Shown piece by piece: positions 2,906-53,027 of a stretch of DNA of 64,000 bases. Every line of letters starts with the position of its first letter. Position 1 is the stretch's first letter. This DNA is from Enterobacter phage CC31, in sequence record NC_014662.1, one strand, 5' to 3'. A program made the translations under genes and the position numbers. The notes under the pieces were generated by a model, which was not told where the DNA came from, did no database searches, and saw only the letters and a list, made by a program, of their open reading frames with translations.

Positions 2906-2944
2906 AATAGCTCCTTATTGTACCGGGCAAGACGCCCGATATAT

Positions 2945-4819
2945 TTATTCGCTCATCCACACTTTACGTGGAGCAGCGTCATCACCCATAACCATTTCGA
3001 AGAGTTCTTTCCAGTTTTCAGGAAGAGAAACTACATCATAATGAGGTTCTTGGATTACTCGCTCATATTCATCTTCTTCCAAAGAACCCAGTCCTTTGAT
3101 GTAACGAAGTTTCCAACCAGCAAGTTCATCTTTTTCCGCTTCATATTCAGCGGCGGTGTAATACCACTTCTGTTTGTCTCCTTTACTCATAATGATAACA
3201 GGAGTTTTGACGAAGCGAATTCGGCCTTCTTCAAACAGACGAGGCCAATTACTGAAGAATGCCAGAAGACTTGGATAGATTGAACCTGTTCCGTCAACAT
3301 CCGCATCTGTCATGATAGCGATGTTTTTGTAGTTCAGATTTTCATAATCTTCACCAATAGTCAATCCAGTGATTGCGCAGATGTCGAAGACCTCTTTGTT
3401 CTTCATTGCTTCTGCTGCGGTCATTCCCCACGTATTCAGGAACTTACCGCGAAGTGGATAACCACCATGAAGTTTACGGTCACGAGTAGTCAGAAGATAA
3501 CCAATTGCAGAATCACCTTCTGTTAAGAACAGAGTGGTTTCTTCTTTATCATTACCATAAAGTTCTGGCTTAATATGTTTAGCAACCTTAGCTTTTGAAG
3601 CAGCTTTTGCAGCTTTAGTTTCAGCAGCTTTTTCTGCCGCCAATTTACGAGCCAGCATAGCTTCAATAATTGGCATATGAATTGCTTCGGACTTCATAAC
3701 TTGTTGAGCAAGTTTTTTGTAGTCCAAGTTCAAATGAGCTTTAACTTCACCCCATGGAGATGTCAGACGTTCTTTAGTCTGAGAATCAAATCGCATGTTG
3801 CTCATATCACGAACGAACATCACGAAAGTAAAACACTCTTTGATACGAGCCTTGTTTACTTCCAGTTTGTACTTACGTTTGAGCATTGGGATGAGTTCAT
3901 TTGACAATTCGTCAACAACCAAATCCACATGAGAACCACCCTTAGAAGTATGGATGTTGTTCACATAAGTCAGTTGGCGGAAACCATCATCTGAACGACC
4001 AATTGCAATTGAACAATTATCTTCATCAGCTACAATAGCTTCTTCATCAAATTGCTTAGCGAATTTCTTGAATCCGCCATTGACTTTTTTGCCTTGGAAT
4101 TTGAATTCAATATCCGGGAATACTACCGCCAGAGTTTGAAGACGGTCCAAAACAATTGATTCATCTACTTCTGTAAGTCCTGAACTTTCAAAGTGACTGA
4201 AGTCAGGAATGAACGATACTCGAGTTCCGGTCTTGGTTTGAATGAACTCTTTTTCCTTTGCTGGCTTACTATCCCAAGAGATATTCTCAGCCCCATTAGA
4301 GCATCGGACGATAATTTCATTCTGGCCGTCACAAGTAGCTCCTGCAAAAGTCACAGAGAAAATATTAGTCAATGCAGAACCAACACCGTTCATACCACCA
4401 GTTTTACGTTCAGCATCATCACCAAAGTTACCACCAGCGCGTGGACGAGTCCAAGCAGCTACTGGTCCAGGAATTTCATCTCCTTCAGGAGTAACTACTG
4501 GAGCTTGTGGAAGACCACGACCATTATCTGTTACGATAACTTTATTGCCTTTAAGCTCAACAGAAATTTTATTTGCAAACTTGAAGTTGGTACGAATTGC
4601 TTCATCGACTGAGTTATCAATGATTTCGTCAATCAGCTTGATTACACCCGGAACGTAAGTTACACTTTGGAATTTACCAAACAGAAAACGTTCGTGAGCT
4701 TCCATAGCTGAAGAGCCGATGTACATACCAGAGCGCTTAATGATATGCTCTCGGTCTGACAGAATTTTAATTTCGTTCTTAATCATCATTTGTCCTCGTT
4801 TAGGTGAACATTCTATCAA
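2945..4819 (-). CDS. 39: DNA topoisomerase II large subunit (GyrB-like ATPase; gp39/gp60-type fused form)
   Basis: 624 aa; N-terminus MIKNEIKILSD...RSGMYIGS and motifs DNGRGLP, GGMNGVGS, EGDSAIGY, IMTDADVDG match recalled T4 gp39 and continue through the gp60-equivalent C-terminus without interruption. Confidence 0.92.
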   Translation of the reverse strand: MIECSPKRGQMMIKNEIKILSDREHIIKRSGMYIGSSAMEAHERFLFGKFQSVTYVPGVIKLIDEIIDNSVDEAIRTNFKFANKISVELKGNKVIVTDNGRGLPQAPVVTPEGDEIPGPVAAWTRPRAGGNFGDDAERKTGGMNGVGSALTNIFSVTFAGATCDGQNEIIVRCSNGAENISWDSKPAKEKEFIQTKTGTRVSFIPDFSHFESSGLTEVDESIVLDRLQTLAVVFPDIEFKFQGKKVNGGFKKFAKQFDEEAIVADEDNCSIAIGRSDDGFRQLTYVNNIHTSKGGSHVDLVVDELSNELIPMLKRKYKLEVNKARIKECFTFVMFVRDMSNMRFDSQTKERLTSPWGEVKAHLNLDYKKLAQQVMKSEAIHMPIIEAMLARKLAAEKAAETKAAKAASKAKVAKHIKPELYGNDKEETTLFLTEGDSAIGYLLTTRDRKLHGGYPLRGKFLNTWGMTAAEAMKNKEVFDICAITGLTIGEDYENLNYKNIAIMTDADVDGTGSIYPSLLAFFSNWPRLFEEGRIRFVKTPVIIMSKGDKQKWYYTAAEYEAEKDELAGWKLRYIKGLGSLEEDEYERVIQEPHYDVVSLPENWKELFEMVMGDDAAPRKVWMSE

Positions 4820-5301: not shown

Positions 5302-6837
5302 TTATACTTTACCTTGCAGAACGTTAGTGAACTGCGAACCACGCCAGAAGTAACCTTGGTCATTCGGATGGACGTTATCATTTGAGGTGTACAGATTTGC
5401 GTTCTCTGCAGTAACCCAACCTTTAACATCTACGAACTCTAAGTTCAACTCAGTAGTAAGTTCAATCAGTGCATCACGAACTGCCGCGATTTGGTCAGTC
5501 ATTCCAAGAGGAGTTGCCGGTCCAAACACGATAATTTTAGCTGCAGGTTGATATTGCTTAATCAGAGCAATTGACTCTCTGAAGTTAGTTTTAAGCAAAT
5601 CAATTCTACCAGCCGGAGCATCGTTATAGCCTAAAGCTAAAGTGATGATATCCGGAGTGAAACTCAGAGTTGCAAGCTTAGCCGTGATACGAGCTTGAGG
5701 CTGAGTTGAGCTTGTTGAAGTCCAACCAGAACCACCGATGCCATCAGCTAATCCGACTAAACCAAGCTTATCACAATAGAAACGGAAATCGTTGAACGAT
5801 GCTTGAGTTGCCATTGTACCGAAGGTGTAAGAGTCACCAAGCTGCCAAATCATCTTAGCTGGACGAGTAATTGCAGTGATAGTTTTTCCAGTGTCTACAT
5901 AAATTCCGCCAAAGGCAGTATTCACGCCAACAAGAGAATATTCACGCATTTGCTCAACACCGTTCCAATCTATGCTATAGATGTAAACTGCACCAGACGA
6001 ATCAGTAGTGACTGAAGTTGCAGAAATACGTTGTCCATCTACATAAAGGTCATACTTGGAGTTATTCCCGGCGAGTTTGAAATCAATTTTGCTTGAATCA
6101 GTTTTGAAATTAACTCGACATTGAGTTCCGTTGCCAGTACCATTTCCTCTGAAACCAGAAACAGCGTCCTTGATGTCAGAACCCCAATAAGTGATTTTAG
6201 CATCAGTACGAGCAATTGTTACGCCAGCATAAATTGTTGAAGCTACACCAGCGTTGGTCGTTACAGTGAATTTAGCGCCTGTACCAGTACCACCTGTTGC
6301 TGAAATTTCACCAGTAGGAGCAGTTGCATATACACCAGGTTTACGAACTTGAGTAGTCGTAATTTCGCCATTACTACCAACAGCCGTTACACGGATTTGT
6401 CCATTAACATCACCAGTGGCTCCAGGAATATCCAAAATATCACCGAATGTATATCCAGTGCCACCTGAAACTAAAGTAGCATTTCCAGAAATACCTACGC
6501 CCTTAATAAGCTTTTGCGTTGGTGGATTTGACATTACTGCAACTGGTTGAAGCATTGGCCCTAATGGTGGTTGAGGGTCTGGACCATCTACTGTATATTC
6601 GCTTAAAGTATATTGATATCCATTTCTAGACTCAATGAAATTAACTTCACCGTAGTCTACATAAGCTTGTTTGAGAGTATCAATTTGAAGTGCATATTGA
6701 GGGTCAGCGTATTCACGCCAGTCTTTACCTTCTTCCTTGGCTTTAATAAGGATGTTGTGAATCCACCAAGGAAGGTAAAGGAAGCTTGTGTTACGCCACG
6801 GAATAGGATGTACCGTGGTCCAAATATCTGTAGCCAT
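5302..6837 (-). CDS. SGNH/GDSL-family hydrolase (esterase) with Gly/Thr-rich beta-type N-terminal domain
   Basis: 511 aa; C-terminal GDSYTFG (catalytic Ser block), LALGYNDA, DNVHPNDQGY (Asp-x-x-His block); N-terminal half rich in G/T/S repeats; strong AAGGAGA RBS before ATG at 6837. Confidence 0.7.
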   Translation of the reverse strand: MATDIWTTVHPIPWRNTSFLYLPWWIHNILIKAKEEGKDWREYADPQYALQIDTLKQAYVDYGEVNFIESRNGYQYTLSEYTVDGPDPQPPLGPMLQPVAVMSNPPTQKLIKGVGISGNATLVSGGTGYTFGDILDIPGATGDVNGQIRVTAVGSNGEITTTQVRKPGVYATAPTGEISATGGTGTGAKFTVTTNAGVASTIYAGVTIARTDAKITYWGSDIKDAVSGFRGNGTGNGTQCRVNFKTDSSKIDFKLAGNNSKYDLYVDGQRISATSVTTDSSGAVYIYSIDWNGVEQMREYSLVGVNTAFGGIYVDTGKTITAITRPAKMIWQLGDSYTFGTMATQASFNDFRFYCDKLGLVGLADGIGGSGWTSTSSTQPQARITAKLATLSFTPDIITLALGYNDAPAGRIDLLKTNFRESIALIKQYQPAAKIIVFGPATPLGMTDQIAAVRDALIELTTELNLEFVDVKGWVTAENANLYTSNDNVHPNDQGYFWRGSQFTNVLQGKV

Positions 6838-28588: not shown

Positions 28589-29152
28589 TTACCATTCCAA
28601 TGCTAATTTTTTAAGTTGCTTTTGTTCTTTCACGTTTTTGGTAATGCTTTTGACCAGCTCATCAGTCACTGTACCTTTAAGACGTTTTAATGTCTCAGAC
28701 AGTTTATTTTTGTTGGCTAGAGTCACTCTATAACGCTCAGCGTCATTGATATTGATTGTATAATGATTCATCAATACTTTCAGAACAAGTGTCTCCTGGG
28801 CGCTCTCGTTTAACTTAGCCCACTTACCAAAACGACGTCCACGAGGAACAGCCGCTTTCAGATAATTGAAGTGAGCTTCATCTGACAAGCCAGAACCAAC
28901 TAAATTCATCACATAAACTGATGGCATACATTCTGGAAATTGAGATAGAGCATTTTCTACCATGAACTTCGAATAATCACGAGTTCCGATTGAGATATCT
29001 TTCTTCTCGTTAATTGCACCGATTATTGCGAAGAATTCATTTTCTGCTGTTTCTTTGAAAGTATCAGAGAGACGTTTAATCTCCGCCTCATCTTTACTAT
29101 ACCAAGCAATCTGGTGTTCGTTCAGCTGAACGTCATCTTCGAATAAACTCAT
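28589..29152 (-). CDS. 62: clamp loader small subunit
   Basis: 187 aa; MSLFxDDxQLNEHQxAWYSKD and C-terminal [14 protein letters not shown] match recalled T4 gp62. Confidence 0.9.
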
Positions 29153-30108
29153 TTGAATTGCATCTCTACAACAAGTTGCATGAACATATAAGTTATGTGC
29201 AGTTCCGTTGAAGCTGCTACACCATGATATTGATTGTTCTCACCGACAATCTCATACATCCGAATTATGCTGGCTTTATCAAGTTTAGTGTAAAGCTCGT
29301 TGGCAAGTTTCTCGATAAACCAAGAATAATTGACCGCATACTTAGGAGCCAGTGCACGAAGTTGTTTAACGTCTTTAGATTTCAGTGCATCAAGAACATC
29401 ACTGATATCACCAGAAGTTTTTGTCACCAAATCCAAAATTCCCGAGTCAATAACACCCTTGGAAGAATAATGGTCCAAATCACCAATCGTCTTACGAAAA
29501 TCTGGGAAGTTCTTGTTAACCAAAGCCGCAATGACTTTAAGGTCTTCAACCTTGATATTTTCATTTTTGCAGATTTCTACACAACGACGAATCATCTCTT
29601 TCATCATGTTGCGTTTATCGTCATCAGTTGCTTGACCGAATTTGATAACACGGCAACGAGATTGAAGTGGTTCAATAATACCGTCAATGTTGTTAGCAGT
29701 GATGATGATTGTACAGTTGCTTGAATAAGCTTCCATGAAAGAACGTAAGTGACGTTGAGATTCAGCAAGACCTGAACGGTCAAATTCGTCAATCACAATA
29801 ACTTTCTGCTTACCAGATAATGAAGCAGCAGTTGCAAAGTTTGTTAGTGGTCCGCGTACGAAATCAATCTTACAATCTGAACCGTTAACGAACATCATTT
29901 CAACACCGACGTCGTTACAAAGTGCTTTTGCTAAAGTAGTTTTGCCTGTACCTGGAGATGCAGATACTAGAATCATATGAGGGATAGTGCCTTTCTTGAT
30001 GATAGCATCAAATACTTGGCGGTCAAATTCCGGAAGAATACATTCCGAAATTGATTGTGGACGATATTTCTGCTCGAAGATGTGTTCTTTTTCGTTAATG
30101 CTTAACAT
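29149..30108 (-). CDS. 44: clamp loader large subunit (AAA+)
   Basis: 319 aa; NEKEHIxEQKYRP, SPGTGKTT Walker A, match recalled T4 gp44. Confidence 0.92.
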
Positions 30109-49582: not shown

Positions 49583-49620
49583 TTTATTTCCTCAGTTGGG
49601 GCTTTCGCCCCGTGGTTGAA

Positions 49621-50598
49621 TTATTTCAGCATAGTTACTTCAGCAATTTCAGTCCAGTTTTTCTCGTCGGTAGCGACGAAATCTGCCAGGTAAAGAGCTG
49701 TGCGGAGAGATACATTACGAAGGCGATTAACGTTGTTTTGCATAAATGCCAGAACGTCAAGTACTTGGTAGTGTTTTAAGCCGCGGTTCTGCAACATGTC
49801 GGTTGTCATAATAACATCTTCAACGCGAGACATGATTTCTTCGTTTGTGTGAACACCGAGGTCCAGATAAACAGAACGAGATACCAAAGCAGAAAGATGA
49901 GGAGCTAATTTGCTACCACGTTCTAATTCTTTATCAATATCAACGTTTGTGATGAAGACGACAGTACCTTCAAATTCAAATTCGTTTGGAATATCTTTTT
50001 CTTCCAGGAAAGCAGAAGCAGTTGACCAGCAAACTTTACGTTTTTCGCCAGAATCAAGAGCAGCTTTCAGAAGGTTCAGGATGTCCATATCAGAAAATAC
50101 GTCCACATCATCAATAAGCAGAACAGAATTTGAATGACGAGATTCCCAGAGACGGCAGTAAAGACCGATGCCAGAAATCTTACCGTTAACCATTTTGTAT
50201 TCAATATCACCGCGAGCATCTGCTTTAGTTAATGCTTTATCTAAGGAGAAAGTTTTACCGATACCAGCAGCACCTGAGATAATCAGTGAACGAATGTTTC
50301 CGTTAACCAGACCAGCAGTCATTAACCCCATAACGTTGAAGCGTTTAGCGATACGTGCTTTCATTTCTTCAACAGATTCGGTCAGAACTTCTTTAGTTAC
50401 TTGACCTTCAATTTTGTAATCACCGTGGAAAACCCATACTCCACGTTTCTTACCATCAATCATTACGAATACTTTACCATCACCCTGAGCAGCGTCAGCT
50501 TCAGATAAATCTTTTGGGAACCACTGATCAATGAATTCAAAAGTACCAGAAATTTCTTTACCGAAGTTAGTACCTTTGGTGATAGTGATGGTTTTCAT
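49621..50598 (-). CDS. P-loop NTPase (AAA-like) hypothetical protein
   Basis: 325 aa from ATG 50596-50598 (GGAGA RBS); Walker A GAAGIGKT, Walker B VLLIDDVD. Confidence 0.65.
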   Translation of the reverse strand: MKTITITKGTNFGKEISGTFEFIDQWFPKDLSEADAAQGDGKVFVMIDGKKRGVWVFHGDYKIEGQVTKEVLTESVEEMKARIAKRFNVMGLMTAGLVNGNIRSLIISGAAGIGKTFSLDKALTKADARGDIEYKMVNGKISGIGLYCRLWESRHSNSVLLIDDVDVFSDMDILNLLKAALDSGEKRKVCWSTASAFLEEKDIPNEFEFEGTVVFITNVDIDKELERGSKLAPHLSALVSRSVYLDLGVHTNEEIMSRVEDVIMTTDMLQNRGLKHYQVLDVLAFMQNNVNRLRNVSLRTALYLADFVATDEKNWTEIAEVTMLK

Positions 50599-50669
50599 TT
50601 TTGTTCTCCGAGTTTCTATTTGTTTGGTATGAGGTAATAGTATCATCATCTCATACCGTTGTAAACAAT

Positions 50670-50933
50670 TTATTTTAATGTCCGCCAAATTTTTACTGCT
50701 TCTCGTCTAGAAACTTCTACAGCTCCAAGCTCTACAGCTTTTTGACGACGGTCTGCACGCAAGTCATAGTGCTTAATGCGTTTGTCCTGGAACCAAGAAC
50801 GTTTCATTCCGATTGCTTCTGCTACTTTATGTAGCTCTTCGATATCTCCATCAGTGAACATATGACAATTTTTAGTTGGATGACCACGAAGCTTCCAACC
50901 ATGATTCATTAGAACATCTACGTAAACTGTCAT
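50670..50933 (-). CDS. DUF4031-like protein
   Basis: 87 aa; MTVYVD...CHM..D...ELH..A..IG.KR.WFQ...HYDL pattern recalled for the DUF4031 family. Confidence 0.55.
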   Translation of the reverse strand: MTVYVDVLMNHGWKLRGHPTKNCHMFTDGDIEELHKVAEAIGMKRSWFQDKRIKHYDLRADRRQKAVELGAVEVSRREAVKIWRTLK

Positions 50934-51079
50934 TGGTTTTTATCCAAATAAGTTTCGATAATTTTCTGGGCGAGATAAACTGCGTTATCTTCGGTTGCAT
51001 CTTCTAAGAAGCTTTCAAAACATGCTGAAATTTCTTCTGTGTCAATCAACTTCTTTACTTCAATCGGTGTAGTTTTCAT
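50930..51079 (-). CDS. small acidic hypothetical protein (49 aa)
   Basis: hand translation MKTTPIEVKKLIDTEE...; ATG overlaps upstream stop (TAATG) and its stop overlaps the DUF4031 ATG (ATGA). Confidence 0.35.
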   Translation of the reverse strand: MKTTPIEVKKLIDTEEISACFESFLEDATEDNAVYLAQKIIETYLDKNQ

Positions 51080-51291
51080 TAGCTTTCCAAAATTTCGTTG
51101 ATGTAGTAAGGACGAACTGAAGAATTCAGGAAGAATTCATCTACGAAGTCAATCAGAGCATCTGAAGTACCTTCCAAAACGATGTAATACTTTTCTGAAA
51201 TTTGCTTTTCAGAAGTGATTTCAACTTTATACTCCTGTGCTACTGCTTTAGCTTGAGCGATATTTTTAACTACGATTTCTAAAGTTTTCAT
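51079..51291 (-). CDS. hypothetical protein
   Basis: 70 aa from ATG 51289-51291 (AGGAG RBS); track ORF extension overlaps promoter. Confidence 0.5.
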   Translation of the reverse strand: MKTLEIVVKNIAQAKAVAQEYKVEITSEKQISEKYYIVLEGTSDALIDFVDEFFLNSSVRPYYINEILES

Positions 51292-51319: not shown

Positions 51320-51350
51320 ATAATACCATATGCTATAGCGCTTGTAAACA
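51320..51350 (-). promoter_or_regulatory. T4-type early promoter
   Basis: minus GTTTACA (plus 51344-51350), about 18-nt spacer, TATTAT (plus 51320-51325). Confidence 0.4.
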
Positions 51351-51734: not shown

Positions 51735-51760
51735 AAACAACAAAACCTCCCGAAGGAGGT
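51735..51760 (-). terminator. intrinsic terminator ACCUCC-UUCG-GGAGGU + U-run
   Basis: 6-bp stem with tetraloop 51745..51760, plus-strand A-rich run upstream; abuts stop of 51760..52020. Confidence 0.65.
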
Positions 51761-52020
51761 TATTTTGAGTGTTTTTCTAGCTGGCGTTCAGCAAACAGTT
51801 TAGGTTGATACAACAACCAACTTAAGATATGCCAGATGACTTTTATGACACCGACAGGCAGCCATAATATAATACTAAACAAGTAATTAAAAGGTGTCTC
51901 TATGTACCCTCGTTTAACGAGAGCATTTGTGATGAGCCACCCGGCGGCTAGATAAACCAATGCAATAAAGACAGGCATAATCCACCATAGTTGAGCCAAA
52001 AGTAAAGTAACCATAATCAC
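51760..52020 (-). CDS. small membrane protein
   Basis: 86 aa, three hydrophobic segments. Confidence 0.55.
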   Translation of the reverse strand: MIMVTLLLAQLWWIMPVFIALVYLAAGWLITNALVKRGYIETPFNYLFSIILWLPVGVIKVIWHILSWLLYQPKLFAERQLEKHSK

Positions 52021-53027
52021 CTGTAGTAAGAGTTGTGGTTCGCCAGATAAACCTCTTCAAGGAACTCGTCCCAGAATGTCATGTCAACTTTATCAGGCAT
52101 ACCGTTTTTAGAAGCGATGATGCTTTGACGTTCAACTTCATCTACACAGTTTTCTAACCATTCTTGAACTTCTTTGAATGGAATAGTGCCAGCTTTAACT
52201 TTCTTGATGAACTCAGCATCTTTAAGCGGATAAACCAAATCACCTGTGGTGTAGATTTCCTGGAGCTGAAGACCACCACGAAGAGCATGAGATAGAGCTT
52301 TCCAGTCTACGCCTTCGTTAGCTTCTGCTTTACGAGCACGTTCACCATATTCATTCCACAGCTTAGTGAGACTGTATTTCATTTCGGCAACAGTGATTGT
52401 TGTCTGGAATTTACGGCCAAGCACATTATAGAACTTCTGAACACCAGATTTGTGGTCAACAAAATCAGTCCACTCAAGGAACTCTGAAGTTGGAAGCAGA
52501 TGAGCAATATCAGCAACTTTCCAACGAACATTATGAGCTTTATCTTTTGGACGGTCTTCGTATTTCCATTCTGGATAAGGCTCTAATACTTCAAGAACTT
52601 TACGAAGTTCAGCTAAACGAGAACCTTTGACACCATACTTAGCTGCTTGCTTACGAACATAACCAAGATAAGCTTTCATATCGGTGGTGTAGAAGCGCCA
52701 GCGGTTATCTTGAATGAATTTCCATACTTCAGGAAGTTCAGACTTAACAACCATATTTGCAGGAGTATGAAGCATATCAAGCGCGACAGTTTCACCTGTA
52801 GCTGCTAATTGCAGGAAGTACTTCAAAGAATAGAGTTCATGGTCAACATCATCATGGGAGTTCTTTGTTGATGTGTTGTTTGTATTCAAATTGGTGTGAT
52901 TCATTGCACGGCCAAGAAGAATTTCCTTCGGATGAGGAACGAAGATTTCTTTGAAGTCCGTGTCACTTTCTGGTGTTGACGTACCATAAAGATGGCTACC
53001 GAAGTAGCCTTTCATAATTGTTTTCAT
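52017..53027 (-). CDS. Pol-beta-superfamily nucleotidyltransferase-like protein
   Basis: 336 aa; N-terminal YFGSHLYGTSTPESDTDF fits the G[SG]-x(9-13)-DhD nucleotidyltransferase signature. Confidence 0.6.
   Translation of the reverse strand: MKTIMKGYFGSHLYGTSTPESDTDFKEIFVPHPKEILLGRAMNHTNLNTNNTSTKNSHDDVDHELYSLKYFLQLAATGETVALDMLHTPANMVVKSELPEVWKFIQDNRWRFYTTDMKAYLGYVRKQAAKYGVKGSRLAELRKVLEVLEPYPEWKYEDRPKDKAHNVRWKVADIAHLLPTSEFLEWTDFVDHKSGVQKFYNVLGRKFQTTITVAEMKYSLTKLWNEYGERARKAEANEGVDWKALSHALRGGLQLQEIYTTGDLVYPLKDAEFIKKVKAGTIPFKEVQEWLENCVDEVERQSIIASKNGMPDKVDMTFWDEFLEEVYLANHNSYYR

Follow-up and report, generated by a model that had tools for sequence, protein, structure and literature searches.

An nrdC.10 orthologue and a neighbouring DUF4031 gene pair in Enterobacter phage CC31

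We analysed three neighbouring genes in a stretch of 64,000 nucleotides (nt) of Enterobacter phage CC31 (sequence record NC_014662.1), which is called the window below and in which all positions are counted unless another locus is named. The genes encode a P-loop ATPase of 325 amino acids (aa), an 87-aa protein of the DUF4031 family and a 49-aa acidic micro-protein, and a preliminary description of this DNA had taken them to be a single coupled unit. This grouping did not hold, since the ATPase gene has a predicted promoter of its own, the three families occur in unequal numbers of records, and in other genera the two small genes are found elsewhere. Sequence comparison makes the ATPase an ordinary orthologue of NrdC.10 from T4, and the true coupled module appears to be the acidic micro-protein together with the basic DUF4031 protein. 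We consider it probable that two independent things lie side by side here, an nrdC.10 orthologue and a cassette made up of the micro-ORF (open reading frame) and the DUF4031 gene, with the roles outlined below.

Much else in the preliminary description was borne out. The three ORFs are present on the minus strand (Table 1) in the plastic nrdC region, a variable part of the genome as had been said, and the Walker A and Walker B motifs can be read from the sequence. The domain searches that had been proposed confirmed the assignment of the 87-aa protein to DUF4031 (Pfam PF13223, 74.4 bits against a gathering cut-off of 25.6, expect value (E) 8.4e-21); the micro-protein is acidic, and no function for any of the three was found in the searchable literature. 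The description had also said that it would fall if homology showed the ATPase to be just the usual orthologue of a characterised T4 protein with a known housekeeping role. An ordinary orthologue of a T4 protein is what we found, but no such role is given in the searchable literature.

The ATPase gene and its promoter

T4 NrdC.10 (NP_049708) and the window ATPase are 72% identical over 319 aa (E 3e-169). The match of the ATPase to the PHROG family phrog_1250 (E 3e-157) is full-length, running from aa 1 to aa 325 in the protein and from position 1 to position 327, the last, in the profile, and the annotation of the homologue in phage PG7 bears the note 'NrdC.10'. The T4 and window proteins share their length of 325 aa, the position of their genes downstream of nrdC.11 and the architecture of their early promoters, so that both of the features expected of this family, synteny with nrdC.11 and an early promoter of its own, were found. 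In T4 the spacer between nrdC.11 and nrdC.10 is 114 bp long, whereas in the window five small ORFs, those of the DUF4031 cassette included, lie between the two genes; apart from these intervening ORFs there is no substantive difference. The two genes are adjacent in T4, RB32 and PKO111, and they can be regarded as conserved neighbours across the Tevenvirinae, despite the insertion of genes between them. The 2.3-kb stretch around the three genes is 96-98% identical to the Karamvirus Enterobacter phages PG7, EcL8g and myPSH1140, which identifies the window as DNA of a T4-like phage (Straboviridae, Tevenvirinae), namely a PG7-like Karamvirus.

Homologues of NrdC.10 were found by tblastn in 1311 phage records, 1194 of which show at least 80% protein coverage. 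The nearer ones are in Tequatrovirus, Karamvirus, Jiaodavirus and the T4-like phages of Acinetobacter and Aeromonas, and the distant ones are in KVP40-like Schizotequatrovirus, Vibrio Ackermannviridae, the jumbo phages RaK2 and BF, and roseophage RDJL Phi 1. With a range that takes in T4-like, KVP40-like, Ackermannviridae and jumbo phages, NrdC.10 is among the more widely conserved uncharacterised early proteins. A weak match of nrdC.10 to the AAA motif was noted in a comparative genomics study of 2006 (PMC1524935), and in the searchable literature on nrdC.10, nrdC.11 and DUF4031 we found comparative-genomics mentions only. Many NrdC.10 homologues in GenBank (for example LT614807, MT968995, PP926509, ON190025) are labelled 'thioredoxin', and in Tequatrovirus phage VEc20 genes like NrdC.11, NrdC.4, NrdC.5 and NrdC.6 bear the same label. 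These labels look like an annotation error that has been propagated from the 'nrdC.x' gene names.

Early promoters of T4 are marked by a -35 element of the GTTTAC type. Directly after the stop codon of the DUF4031 gene the window has GTTTAC, 18 nt and TACTAT, the latter preceded by TG, and these are followed by GGAG, 7 nt and the ATG of nrdC.10. Identical hexamers with identical spacing are found upstream of nrdC.10 in T4, VEc20 and PKO111, and in an alignment of the junction from these three phages and the window the -35 element, the extended -10 element, the Shine-Dalgarno sequence and the start codon of nrdC.10 form an invariant block. This suggests that nrdC.10 is transcribed from its own conserved early promoter of the T4 type. 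The ATPase ORF overlaps no other ORF, and in T4 the terminator that closes nrdC.11 precedes the nrdC.10 promoter.

The micro-ORF and DUF4031 pair

The micro-ORF belongs to phrog_6888 (E 1.5e-30) and the DUF4031 gene to phrog_4887 (E 1e-43). When the two genes are compared with those of VEc20, 11 of the 13 nucleotide differences in the micro-ORF and 24 of the 32 in the DUF4031 gene fall on third codon positions, and this bias, together with membership in PHROG families, indicates that both are real coding genes and not chance ORFs.

The stop codon of the micro-ORF and the start codon of the DUF4031 gene overlap in the sequence ATGA, an arrangement shared by Karamvirus, Tequatrovirus, Jiaodavirus and Gelderlandvirus. 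The preliminary description had linked the two genes by a TAATG overlap as well as by ATGA; the second of these stands, but the TAATG joins the micro-ORF to an upstream 70-aa ORF that the description had omitted. In PKO111 (Jiaodavirus) and CGG4-1 (Gelderlandvirus) the DUF4031 gene is likewise preceded, with an ATGA overlap, by a small ORF for an acidic product (54 and 50 aa, respectively; isoelectric point (pI) about 4.1), and the PKO111 product is 40% identical to the window micro-protein (E 4e-9), the two having the C-terminal motif LAQxIIETY in common. DUF4031 was found in 332 records, 309 of them at the level of Straboviridae, while the micro-ORF of the window type was found in 157 and that of the PKO111 type in 153, so the pairing is essentially one to one across the Straboviridae. 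In a survey of 80 viral loci, which yielded 540 neighbouring ORFs, the micro-ORF family was the neighbour of DUF4031 with the widest spread and the sole family kept at position -1. Co-occurrence, order and start/stop overlap are all conserved, and it is the acidic micro-protein and the basic DUF4031 protein that make up the coupled module, with translational coupling predicted from the ATGA overlap. Outside the Straboviridae DUF4031 has no acidic partner, and the gene upstream of it is not conserved and varies in the size and charge of its product; the obligate acidic micro-protein is thus a peculiarity of the Straboviridae within the Pfam family. The assignment of gene units is corrected accordingly: the micro-ORF and DUF4031 gene are to be handled as a pair, and nrdC.10 separately.

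The pair and nrdC.10 also differ in where they occur. Records with NrdC.10 are about four times as numerous as those with DUF4031 (1311 versus 332, with 157 for the window type of micro-ORF). In T4 nothing lies between nrdC.11 and nrdC.10, and the pair is not seen at this position; in RB32 a seg-like endonuclease gene stands beside nrdC.10; and in PKO111 and CGG4-1 the pair lies downstream of nrdC.10, at distances of about 2 kb and 1.7 kb, respectively, with several genes in between. In PKO111 the homologue of the 70-aa ORF has its 3' end right at the nrdC.10 promoter, and neither a micro-ORF nor a DUF4031 gene intervenes; the window pair lies exactly between these two elements, an arrangement that reads as a clean insertion or deletion of two genes. 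DNA identity to VEc20 is 91% in the micro-ORF, 88% in the DUF4031 gene, 79% in the spacer and 70% in nrdC.10, and the higher identity of the cassette agrees with its having been exchanged laterally at a later date. VEc20 carries a near-identical copy of the T4 nrdC.10 promoter upstream of the micro-ORF (positions 3455-3520 of the VEc20 locus) and a second, Karamvirus-like promoter between the DUF4031 gene and nrdC.10 (3932-4000). Two copies are what would be expected from insertion of a cassette that brought its own 3' flank with it, and they look like the footprint of a recombination event. The probable history of the region is that the cassette entered between the 70-aa ORF and the nrdC.10 promoter, and that Karamvirus and Tequatrovirus have exchanged it.

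The DUF4031 family is very large, with 7,304 representatives at 50% identity (E up to 1e-3). For the window protein a small alpha+beta fold is predicted, at a predicted local distance difference test score (pLDDT) of 93.4. Residues D6, H24, Q49, H55, Y56, D57 and G70 are invariant, the window protein keeping the D, H, Q and HYD residues of the Pfam family, and this constellation suggests a catalytic or metal-binding site. Searches of the PDB with the single sequence and with a profile gave no solved relative of DUF4031. Among the 150 best of the 7,304 representatives the domain practically always stands alone; the ten longest proteins (169-229 aa) contain DUF4031 only, and no informative domain fusion was seen. 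When 150 proteins encoded near DUF4031 at about 60 diverse viral loci were scanned with Pfam, the neighbours were mostly replication and nucleotide-modification genes. The bacterial and prophage contexts resemble the early regions of phages, with DUF5131, RNase_T, DUF3799 and SSB, and they offer no mechanistic clue. A possible role for the DUF4031 protein could be that of a small His/Asp-dependent enzyme or a nucleic-acid-binding protein, with which the acidic peptide would act as partner or regulator; that the two are an enzyme and its regulator is proposed with low confidence.

It is also conceivable, though unlikely, that the pair serves in counter-defence or neutralises a toxin, the acidic peptide mimicking nucleic acid, inhibiting a host factor or restraining DUF4031. 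The opposite charges of the two proteins (pI 4.25 and 9.8), their obligate pairing and translational coupling in the Straboviridae, their lateral mobility within a hyperplastic early region and the apparent catalytic or metal-binding residues would all suit such a pair. However, a PADLOC search with the seven proteins encoded in 49.6-53.0 kb gave no matches at E up to 0.1, and DUF4031 does without the acidic partner in other viruses, lies mostly among replication and nucleotide-modification genes, and has neither a solved relative nor a fusion that would lend the idea support.

The neighbourhoods of DUF4031 gave some further observations. DUF5131 (the phage Gp37/Gp68 family) is the commonest Pfam family near DUF4031, with 4 of the 150 neighbour proteins; it lies immediately upstream of DUF4031 in one viral locus (L031) and also occurs in mycobacterial prophage-like contigs. 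Genes annotated as ADP-ribosyltransferase or ADP-ribosylase lie 0.1-4.4 kb from DUF4031 in four unrelated contexts, namely VEc20_097 (VEc20 locus 2912-3397), RcZahn gp101, Dolphis gp117 and a mycobacterial prophage (L011 9726-10348), and the VEc20_097 product had no Pfam match. An association of DUF4031 with ADP-ribosyltransferases was considered and dropped, as the latter are absent from the 25 commonest neighbour families in the Pfam scan.

Predicted fold and possible roles of NrdC.10

The AlphaFold2 (AF2) model of NrdC.10, made from an alignment of 39 sequences (pLDDT 89.8), consists of a beta-rich domain (aa 1-65), an AAA+ alpha/beta core (aa 76-246) and a four-helix lid (aa 252-322), with a low-confidence, disordered linker at aa 66-72. 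The preliminary description had proposed an N-terminal extension of roughly 120 aa before the P-loop. An extra domain is indeed predicted there, but the P-loop is preceded by 108 residues, of which aa 76-99 form the usual first helix of an AAA+ core, and only aa 1-65 make up a separate domain.

Across the 39 homologues G109, A110, G112, G114, K115 and T116 of Walker A are invariant, as are D163, D164 and D166 of Walker B, which is of the DD type. The same holds for N218, which occupies the sensor-1 position at the end of beta4, for R241, which stands in the motif SRS before beta5, for R294 and R299 in the lid, and for R187, W191 and T193 in a 30-residue insert before beta4. From their positions we infer a catalytic role for N218 and the arginines, N218 as sensor 1, R241 as the arginine finger and either R294 or R299 as the sensor-2 arginine. 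All the marks of the AAA+ superfamily that were looked for are present, that is, Walker A and B, an alpha-beta-alpha core followed by a helical lid, sensor 1, an arginine finger and sensor 2, and on the strength of the model NrdC.10 is probably a complete and active AAA+ ATPase. In RaK2 the homologue has 256 aa and no N-terminal domain, and that of RDJL Phi 1 has an N-terminus unlike the one in the window protein, the matches to both beginning at aa 77-83; these differences fit an exchangeable adaptor domain.

NrdC.10 does not fall into any of the better known AAA+ families that were compared. Searches of the PDB with the single sequence and with a profile gave nothing significant, the best profile match being Cdc6 at E 0.05, and the PHROG clamp-loader families matched weakly (E about 1e-5). 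An alignment by hhalign with the phage's own gp44 (29149..30108) reached a probability of 27%, with the SRS of NrdC.10 aligned to the SRC of the clamp loader. In a BFVD fold search relatives of NrdC.10 came first and generic AAA+ proteins next, so that neither the PDB sequence and profile searches nor BFVD gave a family-level structural match. For the clamp-loader family (gp44/RFC/gamma) there was no family-level profile match and no adjacent gp62-like gene, and every match to clamp-loader, Orc1/Cdc6 and DnaA-type switches (T4 gp44, RFC, Cdc6, DnaA, Hda) lay below family thresholds. Compared with these types, NrdC.10 has in addition the N-terminal beta domain and the 30-residue insert before sensor 1, and the phage already encodes a canonical gp44 besides it.

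The genes around NrdC.10 homologues in distant phages belong to DNA metabolism. In PVA23 the homologue lies between nrdAB/glutaredoxin and the medium subunit of topoisomerase, in a Vibrio Ackermannviridae phage it lies beside clamp-loader, regA and helicase-like genes, and in RDJL Phi 1 it lies between an exonuclease gene and DNA polymerase A. These contexts, taken with early expression and the motifs resembling those of clamp loaders and initiators, make a switch or loader the most likely of the roles considered. NrdC.10, expressed early, would form an ATP-dependent oligomer and this oligomer would be a switch or loader in the replication, recombination or repair of phage DNA, with the N-terminal domain as an adaptor that binds a partner, a client or a substrate. 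The proposal of such a role in DNA metabolism is a tentative one.

A bolder extension of this picture has a rather small chance of being right. It would make the cassette a self-contained mobile unit of enzyme and regulator, possibly for counter-defence or nucleic-acid modification, that moves between nrdC slots and between T4-like genera. DUF4031, with its more than 7,000 clusters at 50% identity, would in that case be a very large group of proteins that share a His/Asp active site and have no relative of solved structure. NrdC.10, for its part, could represent a distinct AAA+ clade in which a beta-barrel domain serves as adaptor and whose client in phage DNA metabolism is yet to be discovered.

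MoxR-type AAA+ proteins (NorQ, CbbQ) and the AAA+ modules of MCM and of sigma-54 activators are also among the known systems closest to NrdC.10. We regard it as doubtful that NrdC.10 is an AAA+ chaperone of the MoxR/CbbQ/NorQ type, which would serve to activate a protein complex of the phage or host, or to assemble one, and would not act on DNA. The usual partner of MoxR is a protein with a von Willebrand factor A domain, and no gene for such a partner is annotated or conserved next to nrdC.10; nor was there a MoxR match in Pfam or in the NCBIfam scan, which gave no matches.

Somewhat more doubtful still is a pairing of NrdC.10 with NrdC.11 in RNA repair or counter-defence, in which remodelling or loading would fall to the AAA+ protein as a subunit. 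The NrdC.11 orthologue does match Pfam RlaP, the 'RNA repair pathway DNA polymerase beta family', and the two genes, adjacent in the three phages named above, flank the intervening ORFs as conserved genes in the window. They are, however, separated by a terminator and a promoter in T4, and other genes insert between them, such as the present cassette and the ADP-ribosylase gene of VEc20. No nucleotidyltransferase gene is adjacent to the NrdC.10 homologue in PVA23, the Vibrio Ackermannviridae phage, RaK2 or RDJL Phi 1, and in a genome reduction of T4 the stretch nrdC.11-mobD.3 was lost as one block that did not include nrdC.10 (PMC9825161).

One functional unit of all three genes, for instance a sensor or adaptor ATPase with two small partners, is very improbable: the genes are adjacent and co-directional, the Tequatrovirus cassette occupies the same slot and the gap between DUF4031 and nrdC.10 lacks a terminator, but the idea is largely refuted by the unequal phyletic distributions, and it also conflicts with the absence of the cassette from this position in T4, its place several genes away on the other side of nrdC.10 in Jiaodavirus and Gelderlandvirus, the conserved promoter of nrdC.10, the unequal identities to VEc20 (88-91% versus 70%) and the many phages and prophages in which the sampled neighbourhoods of DUF4031 show no NrdC.10-like gene.

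Some points nevertheless weigh against keeping nrdC.10 and the cassette wholly apart, and against the role in DNA metabolism. Our scan of the window found no terminator between the DUF4031 gene and nrdC.10, so read-through co-transcription is possible and may add to the expression of nrdC.10. The cassette lies immediately upstream of nrdC.10 in Karamvirus and in about 109 Escherichia phages, and this adjacency would allow a loose functional link. What lies next to the gene in distant phages is a weak guide to its function, and the searchable literature gave no experimental function for either NrdC.10 or DUF4031. All three genes belong to already known, uncharacterised families, which is an ordinary finding for a T4 specialist. 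Functional work could reasonably be aimed at NrdC.10, for its wide conservation, and at DUF4031, for the very large size of the family in phages and prophages and for its apparent catalytic residues.

Gene map and smaller observations

Every gene in 47-54 kb lies on the minus strand. In the direction of transcription the order is the nrdC.11-like gene, an 86-aa membrane ORF, a terminator-like hairpin, a 94-aa ORF, the 70-aa ORF, the micro-ORF, the DUF4031 gene, the 71-bp spacer and the ATPase gene.

Table 1. Positions in the window of the three genes, their parts and neighbouring features
Feature	Position	Strand	Remarks
nrdC.10 orthologue, AAA+ ATPase, 325 aa	49621..50598	-	N-terminal beta domain, AAA+ core, helical lid
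NrdC.10 beta-rich N-terminal domain, aa 1-65	50404..50598	-	five strands; AF2 model, pLDDT 81-88
Walker A GAAGIGKT, aa 109-116	50251..50274	-	read from sequence
Walker B LLIDDVD, aa 160-166	50101..50121	-	read from sequence
Predicted T4-type early promoter of nrdC.10	50637..50666	-	GTTTAC-N18-TACTAT preceded by TG; sequence and scan
Shine-Dalgarno sequence of nrdC.10, GGAG	50606..50609	-	
Spacer between DUF4031 and ATPase genes, 71 bp	50599..50669		holds the predicted promoter
DUF4031 protein, 87 aa	50670..50933	-	basic, pI 9.8
Acidic micro-protein, 49 aa	50930..51079	-	pI 4.25; 11 acidic and 5 basic residues
ATGA overlap	50930-50933		micro-ORF stop / DUF4031 start
TAATG overlap	51077-51081		70-aa ORF stop / micro-ORF start
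70-aa ORF	51079..51291	-	phrog_6496; outside the cassette
nrdC.11 orthologue, RlaP-family nucleotidyltransferase	52017..53027	-	Pfam PF10127 RlaP, E 5.9e-14

Several smaller sequence features were seen on the minus strand around these genes. At 51744-51761, right after the 86-aa membrane ORF, there is a terminator-like hairpin, AACCTCC-TTCG-GGAGGTT, with a T-rich tail, which is analogous to the T4 terminator after nrdC.11. A promoter-like site lies upstream of the 70-aa ORF, at 51348..51320, so the 70-aa ORF, the micro-ORF and the DUF4031 gene may share one transcript. Nine bases past the stop codon of nrdC.10, at 49598-49611, there is a perfect hairpin, GGGGC-GAAA-GCCCC, with a loop of the GNRA type and without a T-run, and after it comes the ribosome-binding site, GAGG, of the next gene; this hairpin could be an element of RNA stability or processing rather than a terminator.

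The PG7 locus differs from the window just beyond nrdC.10. At positions 6380-6526 of that locus about 144 bp hold a 48-aa 'gp55.4-like' ORF, which is absent at window positions 49583-49620, and the blastn alignment breaks between 49587 and 49586 in the window and between 6532 and 6387 in the PG7 locus. The 48-aa ORF found in PG7 only is another insertion or deletion of a small gene in the same region.

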